From the IMG/VR virus record IMGVR_UViG_2802429244_000013, positions 1 through 38,936 of that record: a stretch of DNA of 38,936 nucleotides; one strand, written 5' to 3'. The notes under the pieces were generated by a model that worked only from the letters and a program-made list of their open reading frames with translations, ran no database searches and was not told where the DNA came from. A program made the translations under genes and the position numbers. Below are positions 193 to 8,078 of this stretch, piece by piece. Position 1 is the stretch's first letter. Every line of letters begins with the position of its first letter. The stretch is from a virus. Its lineage: Duplodnaviria > Heunggongvirae > Uroviricota > Caudoviricetes.

Positions 193-849
193 TTACTGGA
201 GTCGTTCCAACGTGAGTGTTCCACCAAAGACCGCGCCGGTATCAATATAATGCAAGTTACCGATATCTACGCGATGGCGTAATGGCGTATGACCAAACCA
301 GAAATGATCAGCGCCGGTAATTCCCTGCCCTTTTCGGCCTTCACGCAATCGCGAGCGACTCCACAACACCTGATGCAGATCGACTTCCTTATGCCACTCA
401 TAAATATCATTGGGGTAATCCGCATGGGCGATGACATGCAGTCCGCTACTACAGCTTAATTCAATTATCCACGGCAAAGACCCGCACTTTTCCAGCGCCC
501 TTCTCGCTTGCTCACGTTGGTGCTCTGTCAGTGCGGCAAACCAGTCGCCACCATTCATAAACCACAAAGACATCTGCTGCGATGCCAGCGCATCCATCGC
601 CATCTGCTCATGATTGCCTCTTACCGCCCTGACCCAGCGTTGATCCAGTAATTGCAGGCAACGCAAACTCTCCGGGCCACGATCGATAACGTCACCAACC
701 GAGATTAACAAGTCTTGCCACGGGTCAAACCGGCAGAACCATAATTTCTCTCGCAGTTGCGCCAGGCAGCCATGAATATCACCCACCAGCCAAATATGTC
801 GCCACTGACTACCATCAATTCTCTGATAGATGTGGCCTGCCTGTTTCAT
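193..849 (-). CDS. pphA: serine/threonine protein phosphatase, PrpA/PphA-like calcineurin-type metallophosphatase
   Basis: ORF 193..870; likely start is ATG at 849 preceded by an AAGGA RBS; metallophosphatase motifs GDIHGC, GDVIDRG and GNHE; strong resemblance to E. coli PrpA from memory. Confidence 0.8.
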   Translation of the reverse strand: MKQAGHIYQRIDGSQWRHIWLVGDIHGCLAQLREKLWFCRFDPWQDLLISVGDVIDRGPESLRCLQLLDQRWVRAVRGNHEQMAMDALASQQMSLWFMNGGDWFAALTEHQREQARRALEKCGSLPWIIELSCSSGLHVIAHADYPNDIYEWHKEVDLHQVLWSRSRLREGRKGQGITGADHFWFGHTPLRHRVDIGNLHYIDTGAVFGGTLTLERLQ

Positions 850-997
850 CAATTCCTTACTCCCGCGCATAAGATCACATTATTTTAACAAAAATGTTAA
901 AAAAGCCTGGACTGAAGCAGTAGAGTGTGTGTTATGGTTGATTGTGAAGTCAGTGAGGGAAAAGCAGTAATGCCATTATCAAACTGGTTTTATAGAT

Positions 998-1327: not shown

Positions 1328-1729
1328 TCATTTATCTCCGACCGGAAACTTCTTATACAAAGTCGATACGCCAACATCATAGATGATCGCCACCTTCTGG
1401 CGAGGAACGCCTGATGCAATTAATCGCCCGGCCTGCGCCCATTGTTCTGGTGTAAGTTTGGGACGACGTCCCCCAATTCGTCCCTGTGCGCGAGCAGCTT
1501 CCAGTCCTGCTTTTGTTCGTTCAACAATCAGTTCACGTTCCATTTCAGCCAGGGCACCCATCACATGGAAGAAAAAGCGTCCCATTGGTGTGCTGGTATC
1601 AATTGAATCAGTCAGACTACGAAAGTTGATGCCTCGTTCGCGCAACTCCTCCACCAGCACGACATTCCAGACAACCAGTGTGTCGCCTGCCGATAATGTC
1701 ACAACTGACTGGCGGGTGGAATTGTGGAA
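1328..1729 (-). pseudogene. pin: DNA invertase remnant (Pin/Gin/Hin serine recombinase), N-terminal catalytic domain missing
   Basis: ORF 1328..1702 encodes the C-terminal part of a Pin-like protein (GDTLVVW, ELRERGINFRSLTDSIDTS, GRFFFHVMGALAEMERE, GRIGGRRPKLT); first codon is GTG, the frame closes 9 codons upstream, and about 15 residues are missing after VVW relative to Pin. Confidence 0.75.
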
Positions 1730-5168: not shown

Positions 5169-5521
5169 TACGCCTCCGATGTAACAGTCGTTATTCCATA
5201 GAGAGTGTCGATTTCAGCGGAAAACATGACACGTCGGGTCGTGGTATCCACCGTCGTATTGAAAGAGAGGATTGATTTAACGCCCTGCGTTTCCAGAATG
5301 CGTTTTCTGATCGCTAGGTTGTAAGTTTCCGGTTTTTGCCTGCCCAGCACAGACTGGATCCACGGAGTCCCTTCGGTGGTGTCGAGAAACCATTGCCCAT
5401 ACCACAATTCGAATCGCGTTTTCACAGCCTGCGCCACGGCCTCAGGCGAGTTAATCAGCCAGGTGTCATCACCGCTGCCAAAGGTGTAATCGCCATCGGC
5501 GTCTTCACGTCTGTATCGCAT
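5168..5521 (-). CDS. baseplate protein (GPW/gp25-like)
   Basis: 117-aa ORF between the baseplate V-like and J-like genes; 1-nt overlap at both ends. Confidence 0.55.
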   Translation of the reverse strand: MRYRREDADGDYTFGSGDDTWLINSPEAVAQAVKTRFELWYGQWFLDTTEGTPWIQSVLGRQKPETYNLAIRKRILETQGVKSILSFNTTVDTTTRRVMFSAEIDTLYGITTVTSEA

Positions 5522-6273
5522 CAGTTTACCCCGTCGGTACTGCTTCCACCGCGCTGAACACCGCCATGAGTGTGCGTATCATCGATTGGCTTGCCGTTAG
5601 CCTTAACGCTCCCCAAGAACTCAACAGCACCAGTGATTTTTGAAGCCACGCCAGAAACAACAGACCCCACCATACCTCCCATCCAGGTTAACAGGCCATG
5701 AATGGTTACTTTCTCAGAAAAATCAGCCAGAGGGGCAACCACATCAAGGCCCCCCGGAGCGACAATTTTAATTTTCCTGGTATCAGGATTAAGCTCAAAA
5801 TAGGTGCTGCCGTCATCACTACGCAACTGTGTGGCACTGGTATTAATACCGCTAATCTTCCTTGCCTGCGACTGGGGACCGACAATACAAAACGCATCCG
5901 ATAAATCATGCATTCTGTCATCGACCGGCTCCTGTATCCCGCCACTCTGCCACCAGAAATCAATACAACGATCGGCAAAAATCACCAAACATTCATCACC
6001 GGCTTTAACTGGAAAAGTCAACGTACAGCCTCCGCCGCGCGGAAATACCACTGGCACATCCACCAGCAGGGGTAATGTCGTCGACTGGTTGATTCCATTT
6101 GAGTCCGGCTCATAGCCTTTAATCGCAGGTTGAACAACCACTGTTACCGTGTCCGGATCAAATGACTGGACGATGCCGGGCATAGAAACACGCAGCGCCG
6201 ACATGACAGAGCCAGCAAGTCTTACATCGGCCTGTTCTTTGCTACCAAGTTGAGCGCTTAAAGAAACGGGCAT
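5521..6273 (-). CDS. baseplate assembly protein V / spike (Mu gp45-like)
   Basis: 250-aa ORF with the N-terminal region typical of phage baseplate V proteins; position in the baseplate cluster. Confidence 0.6.
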   Translation of the reverse strand: MPVSLSAQLGSKEQADVRLAGSVMSALRVSMPGIVQSFDPDTVTVVVQPAIKGYEPDSNGINQSTTLPLLVDVPVVFPRGGGCTLTFPVKAGDECLVIFADRCIDFWWQSGGIQEPVDDRMHDLSDAFCIVGPQSQARKISGINTSATQLRSDDGSTYFELNPDTRKIKIVAPGGLDVVAPLADFSEKVTIHGLLTWMGGMVGSVVSGVASKITGAVEFLGSVKANGKPIDDTHTHGGVQRGGSSTDGVN

Positions 6274-6291
6274 TCATATGTCTCCAGAAAG

Positions 6292-6316
6292 TAAAAAACC
6301 CGCCGGGTGGCGGGTT
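6292..6316 (-). terminator. rho-independent terminator of the small membrane protein gene
   Basis: Hairpin cccgcc-gggt-ggcggg at 6299-6314 followed on the minus strand by TTTTTT, 17 nt after the stop at 6333. Confidence 0.55.
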
Positions 6317-6332
6317 CATTATTGAAGTTTCA

Positions 6333-6572
6333 TTACTGCTTGTTTGCTTCTAACGCTTCAGCTATTCGGCGAAGATACTCATTGTTTTTAAATGAAACCA
6401 TGATGCACTCAAAGAATATTCGGCAAAATACAGCACATAACAAAAGCACTAAAGCGCCAGCAGCCTTCCCATTAACAAACGTTATAATGGCGGCAACAAC
6501 CAGAAGTAACATTGTGATGCCATACAGAACGTTGATGATTTTTGGAGTTATTAATTTATCAAATCCGAACAT
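6333..6572 (-). CDS. small hydrophobic membrane protein (79 aa), moron
   Basis: Two predicted transmembrane segments; AAGGAA RBS; own promoter and terminator; inserted between baseplate genes. Confidence 0.6.
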   Translation of the reverse strand: MFGFDKLITPKIINVLYGITMLLLVVAAIITFVNGKAAGALVLLLCAVFCRIFFECIMVSFKNNEYLRRIAEALEANKQ

Positions 6573-6608
6573 GCGACAAATTCCTTATCGTGAAAGTAGA
6601 AGTATCAC

Positions 6609-6636
6609 ATTATAATTACGGGTGATTAATCAACAA
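6609..6636 (-). promoter_or_regulatory. sigma70-like promoter for the small membrane protein gene
   Basis: Minus strand TTGTTG (6631-6636), 16-nt spacer, TATAAT (6609-6614), about 35 nt upstream of the start codon. Confidence 0.4.
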
Positions 6637-6711
6637 TCTTTTTGCATGGAAAGGAACCGATGATTTTCGGCGCATCCATGCTGTTCTGCAGAAGCTGGAC
6701 GCCAATGTAAT

Positions 6712-7047
6712 TCACTTCACCTTCCGGCAATCATACGTCCAGAACTCCCGAGGCTCGTCCATATTTTTGCGGATAACTTCAACGTTGAGGATCGCTTTTT
6801 TGTTTCGTTTGATGTAGTCCATACCTAACCAACGTCCAGTATTAGGATCAGGTAACATCCATTGCATCATGACATTATCGAAATCGTCTTTTTGTTTCAA
6901 AAAGGTCATTTTTTGTGTTTCTGGCTTTTGACCATTGATGTGCATGAGGCCATCATTACCAGCATCAAAGCGGAATGGTCCGCACTGCGTTGCCGCCGAA
7001 ACTGTTAACGGCAGGGCCAAGAATAAACAAAAAAATACTTTTTTCAC
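6712..7047 (-). CDS. small secreted protein with N-terminal signal peptide (111 aa)
   Basis: MKKVFFCLFLALPLTVSAATQ is a signal peptide; GTG start with GGAG RBS, overlapping the upstream stop (GTGA); no family recognised. Confidence 0.5.
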   Translation of the reverse strand: MKKVFFCLFLALPLTVSAATQCGPFRFDAGNDGLMHINGQKPETQKMTFLKQKDDFDNVMMQWMLPDPNTGRWLGMDYIKRNKKAILNVEVIRKNMDEPREFWTYDCRKVK

Positions 7048-8078
7048 TCTACATCTCCGACTTTGTCCAAAGTGCCTTTTGCCAATAGTTCTTTGCCACC
7101 TTTAGCCAGGCAAAGCAGGTCCATATACCACGCCTGCCCTCGGGTGTCGCCAGTATAATCAATGCTGCCCACAATGTAATCACCGTCAGTATTAATGCTG
7201 GCAGGCTGTGACATGCCTGGCAGACCGTTAACGTAGAGATTACCGTCGCTTTCAGACTCATCCAGTCGTGCTGGCGATTTCGCTACCTGGTCATTACTCA
7301 AAGAGGCACGGTATACAGATGCCTGATCCAGACGAATAAGCCCACCGAGCTTAATATTTGGATTAATCAGGCATCTGACATTTACGCCAGCTCCCATCGT
7401 CTGCTGTGGCATACCGATAAGCCCGGTGTTAGCATTCAACACCGTAGCAACACCAATATATTTATCTTCAGGAACAATATTTACCAGATTATTTTCATAC
7501 CACCAGTTAGCCTTACACTGCCCTGCGATATGATTCATCAACCTTGATGTGTTTTGATAAACAACGCGACCCCGGGGAAATACCGTTTCAGGCATGTCAG
7601 GAACTGCGCCGGATTCGATGCCATATGGTTCGAATGATTTCATACCCAGACTGAAAAGATCTCTGTACTTCCAGCCAGCTGCCACTGTGGTTTTCACACT
7701 TGCGTTCAGGTGGCCTTCCCAGCTGTCAATACACTGCAACATGATCCAACTGTCTGTGGCATTATCTTTACCAGTGACAGTAAAACGGATATCTCCATTG
7801 AATATCATACCAACGTTTTCATCAGGATAATTACCTGCTGCATCCGGTTGCCCCTTGTATCCGGCAATAACCTGTATACGCGAAAACTCCTTCTGCATAA
7901 TCCGGTTCTGAGTGGTAGGAGACAGGTTATAAACCTTAAAATTTCCAACGAATCCATTAAATATGGTCGCAGGCATTTTCTGAATATTGAAAGTGACTTT
8001 AAGCTCAGAAATTTTTATCCCATCGCCCTTATCATCAACAAGCAATAATTCAAAGTGACGCATCCAGTTTTTCGACAT
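7044..8078 (-). CDS. baseplate hub or tail protein (Mu gp44/P-like)
   Basis: 344-aa ORF with ATG start confirmed (MSKNWM); size and position fit the P-like baseplate protein of Mu/SfV-type tails. Confidence 0.5.
   Translation of the reverse strand: MSKNWMRHFELLLVDDKGDGIKISELKVTFNIQKMPATIFNGFVGNFKVYNLSPTTQNRIMQKEFSRIQVIAGYKGQPDAAGNYPDENVGMIFNGDIRFTVTGKDNATDSWIMLQCIDSWEGHLNASVKTTVAAGWKYRDLFSLGMKSFEPYGIESGAVPDMPETVFPRGRVVYQNTSRLMNHIAGQCKANWWYENNLVNIVPEDKYIGVATVLNANTGLIGMPQQTMGAGVNVRCLINPNIKLGGLIRLDQASVYRASLSNDQVAKSPARLDESESDGNLYVNGLPGMSQPASINTDGDYIVGSIDYTGDTRGQAWYMDLLCLAKGGKELLAKGTLDKVGDVE

Follow-up and report, generated by a model that had tools for sequence, protein, structure and literature searches.

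Between the baseplate hub and spike genes of an Escherichia coli prophage lies a gene of the STY1065/STY2022 family (PHROG 3443) whose product is, very probably on the sequence evidence, an exported accessory protein that does not belong to the virion. The gene occupies positions 6712..7047 (minus strand) of the 38,936-nucleotide (nt) stretch of DNA analyzed here, IMG/VR virus record IMGVR_UViG_2802429244_000013, hereafter the window. It was recognized from the list of open reading frames (ORFs) together with a profile match, and it encodes 111 amino acids (aa) from a GTG start. The window combines a Rac-like early region with a late region of the SEN34/Brunovirus myovirus type. The complete proposal that we develop below, that is, a periplasmic accessory protein, encoded in a nested unit, expressed both late and in lysogens and serving an exclusion-type role, we regard as evenly poised between holding and failing.

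Gene start, family and predicted export

The GTG start codon (7047..7045) shares three bases with the TGA stop codon of the upstream gene (7046..7044), in a four-base GTGA overlap. The upstream gene (7044..8078, minus strand) encodes a 344-aa baseplate hub protein related to gp41 of phage E217, with matches to Pfam PF22759 (E217_GP41) and to phrog_196, annotated "baseplate hub" (E = 1e-79). A GGAG Shine-Dalgarno motif (7055..7058, minus strand) lies within the final hub codons, 7 nt 5' of the GTG. The original prediction, made from the sequence alone, had described such an ORF of 111 aa with a GTG overlapping the upstream stop and preceded by GGAG, and direct reading of the sequence agreed with it on each of these points. 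The RefSeq protein WP_000755137.1 of E. coli TUM1880 is 99% identical to the window protein and its start is annotated identically, and gene copies 100% identical to that of the window are present in several complete E. coli genomes.

Related loci were compared in a set of 84, made of 80 IMG/VR loci, three phage records and one RefSeq E. coli locus. The start codon was found from -8 to +3 nt relative to the hub stop in all of them except L016, L022 and L024, where the start-picking heuristic failed, and L039, where the hub-stop call failed. Start codons were ATG, GTG and, in SEN34, TTG. Because the start is held at the hub stop from locus to locus, translational coupling appears to be a conserved property, and the coupling to the upstream gene that had been proposed from the window is thus upheld. 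We also noticed that database calls of the family are often only 77-92 aa long (SEN34_20, QBP27692.1) and thereby lose the signal peptide, since the true start is often a GTG or TTG abutting the hub stop. Truncated calls of this kind concern the SEN34 gene (L085, 3571..3912) and that of Klebsiella phage ST340-VIM1phi10.1 (L001, 4001..4342).

A homology search, which had been suggested as a check, returned 134 homologues in prophages of Enterobacterales (E. coli, Salmonella, Klebsiella, Pantoea, Pectobacterium, Erwinia, Rahnella), and the phrog_3443 profile matched residues 2-111 of the 111 (E = 7.4e-48). These homologues, a ratio of nonsynonymous to synonymous substitution rates (dN/dS) of ~0.08 and a conserved signal-peptide pattern speak strongly against the alternative that the ORF is untranslated; judged by them, the ORF is a real, constrained gene and not a chance one. 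The family is narrow. Indeed, an exhaustive hidden Markov model (HMM) search of 1.84 billion representatives yielded only 58 clusters (50% identity); four long multi-domain matches (P0166, P0174, P0175, P0177) were discarded as repeat or low-complexity artefacts of the MucBP/Flg_new type. On the sequences retrieved, it is confined to the tail modules of temperate SEN34-like myophages of Enterobacterales. It is already catalogued, as PHROG 3443, where it is annotated as of function unknown, and the window protein is a full member that shows no difference from it. The Prokaryotic Genome Annotation Pipeline (PGAP) name of WP_000755137.1 in RefSeq is "STY1065/STY2022 family phage-derived protein"; no model matched in an NCBIfam scan of the window protein, and the RefSeq name was thus not reproduced by HMM.

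The N-terminus of the window protein reads MKKVFFCLFLALPLTVSA up to the predicted cleavage point and ATQC beyond it; its n-region carries a charge of +2, its hydrophobic core spans 13 residues, and V-S-A occupies positions -3 to -1. By heuristic criteria for the n-, h- and c-regions (n/h/c), it satisfies the layout of a Sec substrate of signal peptidase I (SPase I), with MKK, VFFCLFLALPLTV and VSA in succession and cleavage before the next A. The signal-peptide call rests on these heuristics and on conservation of the pattern across the family, which was quantified on 55 distinct homologues; dN/dS was computed on 55 distinct proteins from 81 loci. A net n-region charge of +1 or +2 was kept in 54/55, an AxA-type cleavage site about three residues before an invariant Cys also in 54/55, and a hydrophobic core with a mean Kyte-Doolittle hydropathy of at least 1.9 in 55/55. 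Median dN/dS was ~0.08 in the mature region vs ~0.40 in the signal peptide, whose sequence drifts freely while its n/h/c grammar stays. The proposal of a signal-peptide protein is thereby confirmed, with one correction: the signal peptide, first quoted as 21 residues, is likely cleaved after 18-19 (residues 1-18/19; nt 7047..~6991).

Two cysteines, C22 and C107, are invariant. No lipobox of the form [LVI][ASTVI][GAS]C stands at the end of the window signal peptide, where C22 is preceded by ATQ, with Q at -1, and lipobox-like strings in a few homologues occur only at residues 5-8, inside the h-region. Two divergent clusters, P0126 and P0136 (locus L089, 6001..6879), are lipoproteins with an LSGC or LVSC lipobox and an extra N-domain of ~190 aa before the STY1065 domain; they hold the identical place directly 3' of the hub gene. 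This N-domain had no match in PDB or Pfam. Together, conservation among homologues, the export grammar, the Cys pair and the lipoprotein variants make a strong case for periplasmic export.

An AlphaFold2 (AF2) model with a predicted local distance difference test (pLDDT) score of 87 showed eight β-strands in a mature protein of ~92 aa, arranged as a calycin-like (avidin/lipocalin-like) β-barrel. The protein is thus probably, as modeled, a small eight-stranded up-and-down barrel clamped by a C22-C107 disulfide, which would probably form in the periplasm. An outer-membrane β-barrel of the Lom type was considered and rejected, as the mature ~92 aa are rich in charged residues and soluble barrels match better. 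Structure comparison of the model found no significant structural relative, Pfam and PADLOC scans of the protein gave no match, a PDB sequence-profile search gave only spurious nanobody matches (E >0.03), and BFVD and virion structures provided no match either.

The hub-spike junction and a candidate nested unit

Gene order was the same in 84/84 loci: plug, hub, STY1065-family gene, a spacer of 64-2968 nt, spike and sheath initiator. The same post-hub position was found in SEN34 and in L089-L091. In the window, the downstream boundary of the unit is the gene for a gp138/gpV-like membrane-puncturing spike (5521..6273, minus strand; PF18352, 1.5e-44, with the Apex motif). In lytic Rosemountvirus, the hub and spike genes overlap directly with no gene between them, and a Burkholderia relative lacks the STY1065-family gene and has an unrelated opposite-strand gene at this junction. 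The model of the E217 virion obtained by cryo-electron microscopy has gp41 as the hub and gp43 as the tip, with no mention of gp42 (PMC10329688). The paper on SEN34 contains no proteomics. The absences from Rosemountvirus and Burkholderia, together with the E217 model, indicate that the protein is unneeded for building such baseplates, and by these comparisons it is almost certainly not a virion part. The original prediction had called the signal peptide atypical for a virion component, and this view proved sound. Of the two roles it offered, a periplasmic cargo made with the tail genes fits the signal-peptide pattern, the lipoprotein variants and the invariant Cys pair; an unusual tail accessory does not, as lytic relatives lack the gene and no virion-protein family or structure matched.

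The interval between the STY1065-family gene and the spike gene (window 6274..6711) behaves as a cargo slot. In ~80 loci (L001-L084) it holds 54 unrelated ORF clusters over the 64-2968 nt just mentioned. Its contents include Fic/Doc, HEPN, a P22-type antirepressor with Arc, a zinc-ribbon/tRNA_anti-like membrane protein, a putative HExxH protein, TPR-like proteins and lipoproteins. The window cargo is a gene for a 79-aa small membrane protein of the DUF4282 type (6333..6572, minus strand; PF14110, 1e-10; phrog_12129). No cargo-slot protein, this neighbour included, had a match in PADLOC. The DUF4282 gene has a promoter-like site of its own, with TTGTTG at 6636..6631, 16 nt, and a perfect TATAAT at 6614..6609, 36 nt before the ATG. 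It is also preceded by an AAGGAA ribosome-binding site, and the stretch 6296..6636 resembles a classic moron. An antisense ORF (6307..6615, plus strand), longer than the DUF4282 gene, was considered spurious.

The slot ends in an intrinsic terminator, GAACCCGCC-ACCC-GGCGGGTTT followed by a U-run (6296..6317, minus strand; -16.7 kcal/mol, z -4.5), which lies 23 nt before the spike start codon. An equivalent hairpin was found in 50/53 distinct loci, 38-47 nt before the spike start, with compensatory stem variants (CCCGC/GCGGG, CCCAGC/GCTGGG, CCCAC/GTGGG and CCTCGC/GCGAGG), and it was kept even in cargo-less loci (L020, with a 75-nt gap, and L058, with a 64-nt gap). A terminator amid an essential operon makes sense if it stops non-antiterminated transcripts begun upstream. 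In lambdoid phages, Q-antiterminated late transcripts pass intrinsic terminators. The window encodes a Q-type late antiterminator (26036..26710, minus strand; DUF1133, 1e-107, and a weak Phage_antitermQ match, 6e-6), so that late transcription can read through the internal terminator. Between the Q gene and the holin gene, we also observed an ORF6N-domain gene (25154..25765, minus strand) and an opposite-strand DUF2441-domain gene (24252..24791, plus strand), and this interval is likely another accessory slot.

A candidate start point for such upstream transcripts lies inside the hub gene. A sigma-70-like site (7152..7180, minus strand), made of the -35 hexamer ATTACA (7180..7175), a 17-nt spacer and the -10 hexamer TATACT (7157..7152), covers hub codons 300-309, ~98 nt upstream of the GTG. 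It matches the consensus at 9/12 positions; within the 200 nt upstream of the gene no other site scored better, and its position is common to distant lineages. The Mann-Whitney p-value of a promoter-score test is unusable as evidence, because the loci are not independent. Synonymous-codon entropy was measured along the hub gene in 37 hub sequences with pairwise identities below 95%: among 207 windows of 11 codons, codons 299-309 (7152..7184, minus strand) had the lowest value. GAT300 (35/35), GGC304 (34/35), TAT308 (36/37) and ACT309 (34/34) were near-fixed, and TAC likewise nearly so; adjoining Asp, Gly, Thr and Ile codons vary freely. TAT ACT was also retained in SEN34 and in the lipoprotein-variant loci (L089). 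This synonymous constraint is suggestive of a promoter, and the stretch could instead be another cis-element.

The GC fraction falls to 0.40-0.41 over 6300-7050 vs ~0.49 in the flanks. We judge it somewhat probable that the promoter-like element, the gene, the cargo slot and the terminator form a nested, moron-like transcription unit, in which case expression of the STY1065-family gene probably does not depend on the late operon alone. The idea of expression within the tail operon thus stood as far as coupling to the hub is concerned, and missed the nested unit. Expression of the gene in lysogens is probable, from the logic of the terminator and the constrained promoter-like site.

Weighing the possible functions

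We propose the following course of events. A protein of ~92 aa, left after Sec export and SPase I cleavage, would be located in the periplasm. Its gene would be the constant first gene of a moron-like unit in SEN34/Brunovirus-type temperate myophages. During lytic growth, its transcript would be part of the late operon antiterminated by Q, and its translation would proceed through coupling to the hub gene; in lysogens, transcription would probably start from the promoter in hub codons 300-309 and end at the terminator. A periplasmic protein would most likely act on the envelope stage of phage attack, either in superinfection exclusion or in guarding the lysogen or infected cell from incoming contractile tails, by analogy with T4 Spackle, T5 Llp and Cor. 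Blocking the envelope stage is the commonest role of exported phage proteins in tail modules (T4 Spackle, T5 Llp, Cor, HK97 gp15, Ltp), and an exclusion role is proposed here for this reason. An exclusion or envelope-protection function is the role that we favour among those considered, although at low confidence.

Outside one stretch of ~320 nt (window ~6790..7110), L079 and L084 share 99-100% identity with the window along the hub, DUF4282 and spike genes; within that stretch, identity is only ~50-65%. The swapped segment covers the last ~20 hub codons and codons 1-87 of the STY1065-family gene, and its breakpoints fall within two conserved motifs, YMDLLC and ILNVEV. In L019 it is the other way round, with 99% identity in the STY1065-family gene and 80% in the hub. 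By these alignments, alleles are exchanged as cassettes, and the variable cargo slot and the sharply bounded swap give the locus an accessory or arms-race flavour.

Several observations weigh against an exclusion-type role. The gene is core-like: it is universal in the lineage, evolves at a hub- or spike-like rate and is without diversifying selection, which we rejected as an explanation given the dN/dS of 0.08. Classical exclusion genes are usually patchy and fast-evolving. Mean p-distance of the protein was 0.24 vs 0.19-0.21 for the hub and the spike N-terminus. A covariation test, in which its distances were set against those of tape-measure, Dit, plug, hub, spike and gp25, gave pairwise correlations of 0.67-0.69 for the hub, 0.64 for the spike N-terminus, 0.47 for the tape-measure C-terminus, 0.40 for Dit and 0.38 for plug. 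As the correlation decays with physical distance, it reflects linkage and no specific co-adaptation, and the test could not discriminate targets; covariation with the tape-measure lytic-transglycosylase domain or the spike did not go beyond linkage. Furthermore, PADLOC gave no match, and the protein showed no homology with Spackle, Llp, Cor or PliC/MliC, nor with any protein of solved structure. Lastly, the promoter candidate reaches only 9/12, its hexamers lie over codons of a conserved protein motif, and the compared loci are related. It is mainly the core-like conservation and the lack of diversifying selection that keep our confidence in exclusion modest. We give low weight to its boldest form, a speculative and rather unlikely one: the barrel would be a new class of periplasmic gatekeeper, expressed in lysogens from the hub-internal promoter, that recognizes the tail tip (hub, spike or tape-measure) of related contractile phages and blocks penetration, and its gene would mark the fixed left border of an undescribed accessory or defence hotspot.

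The same core-like character, with universal presence, purifying selection and a rate as in structural neighbours, speaks for a late-acting periplasmic helper of the phage itself, and so does the strict translational coupling to the hub across loci, by which such a helper would be made in proportion to tail proteins. It would guard progeny from abortive triggering on receptor-bearing debris, as T5 Llp does in its second role, or would adjust how the envelope breaks down during lysis. Yet the terminator, conserved even in cargo-less loci, makes sense mainly for stopping a non-antiterminated transcript, the prophage has a complete lysis cassette (holin, endolysin, Rz/Rz1) at another place, and a soluble periplasmic protein would be unable to mask surface lipopolysaccharide receptors. 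We hold this reading to be unlikely, though it survives best among those that stand against exclusion.

Somewhat less probable still is a lysogenic-conversion or fitness factor directed toward the host or its environment. Here, the partner of the calycin-type barrel would be a small hydrophobic ligand or an envelope protein of the host, and the protein would confer resistance to stress, serum or antimicrobials in the manner of lambda Bor and Lom. The calycin/avidin/lipocalin-like fold, the place in a moron-type unit of prophages from gut and plant Enterobacterales and the GC content below that of the flanks are all consistent with it. However, if the benefit were a general one, the gene should also occur in other phages and settings, and the family, with its 58 clusters, was never found outside one position in one tail module; nor was a ligand-binding motif identified in the protein.

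A sub-case of exclusion, in which the protein would be a Spackle- or PliC/MliC-like inhibitor of peptidoglycan hydrolases that neutralizes the tape-measure lytic-transglycosylase domain of incoming related phages, appears improbable. Membership in PliC/MliC is marked by Pfam MliC (PF09864), by conserved inhibitory loop motifs and by a close fold match, and the window protein did not show this combination. Finally, the protein might be part of the baseplate or help to assemble it, with a hydrophobic N-terminus that would serve, for instance, as a hub-lumen or membrane-insertion element and not as a signal peptide. This is very improbable: the hub-spike position, the hub coupling and universality in the lineage would suit it, but the N-terminus keeps grammar and not sequence (dN/dS 0.40; AxA in 54/55), lipobox variants exist, the invariant Cys pair suits an oxidizing compartment, lytic relatives assemble the hub-spike architecture without the gene, and no structural-protein family matched.

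Relation to known systems and implications

A moron-encoded exported protein is a known category. Like the phage morons of the Juhala/Hendrix definition (lambda lom and bor, HK97 gp15), the STY1065-family gene is an accessory gene between essential tail genes, with a lower GC than its flanks, an intrinsic terminator on its 3' side, a product predicted to be envelope-located and a Q-read lambdoid late operon around it. Unlike them, it has no intergenic promoter, since its start overlaps the hub stop and the sole promoter candidate is inside the hub coding sequence. It is also fixed in every member of the lineage, where morons are sporadic, and behind it comes a second slot, whose cargo is truly variable. 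As to absence from related phages, by which morons are recognized, the Rosemountvirus and Burkholderia relatives are without the gene and all temperate relatives in Enterobacterales carry it. What is unusual is thus the lineage-wide fixation, the coupling to the hub, the promoter candidate in coding sequence and the position at the border of a cargo hotspot with a conserved terminator.

As predicted, the protein shares with T4 Spackle (Sp), a periplasmic inhibitor of the incoming tail lysozyme gp5, the character of a small Sec-exported periplasmic phage protein and the proposed logic of action at the periplasmic stage. In contrast, the two have no sequence or fold similarity, the window protein being modeled as an all-β barrel and Spackle being helical, and the gene for Spackle belongs to the early class of a lytic phage. 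T5 Llp and lambdoid Cor are likewise small exported proteins encoded in or beside the tail module and acting on the periplasmic side. They are lipoproteins, whereas the window protein has no lipobox, although fused lipoprotein variants exist in its family; moreover, the window gene does not lie beside a receptor-binding protein gene, and there is no homology. In the library searched, no paper mentions STY1065 or STY2022, and a general literature search on exclusion and morons did not bring up the family either.

With regard to the rest of the prophage, it is integrated between yebY and pphA in TUM1880. A metallophosphatase gene near the left end of the window (193..870, minus strand) corresponds to chromosomal pphA by comparison with TUM1880, which places host DNA beside the prophage at this end of the window. 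A Pin/Gin-type invertase gene (1328..1702, minus strand) lacks the N-terminal catalytic part, its Resolvase domain match beginning at profile position 85, and the tail-fibre inversion switch beside the fibre and chaperone genes is probably a remnant.

Members of the STY1065/STY2022 family are carried by well over a thousand contigs of enterobacteria, from E. coli, Salmonella (including Typhi), Klebsiella, Pantoea and Pectobacterium. For its annotation, GTG and TTG starts need care, as the signal peptide is otherwise lost from gene calls. The hub-spike junction, as a cargo hotspot, deserves a search for genes of defence systems or toxins. As for the family itself, what had been a "hypothetical protein" becomes a concrete experimental target through its export signals, its single fixed position and the bracket that the terminator and the constrained promoter-like site form around it.
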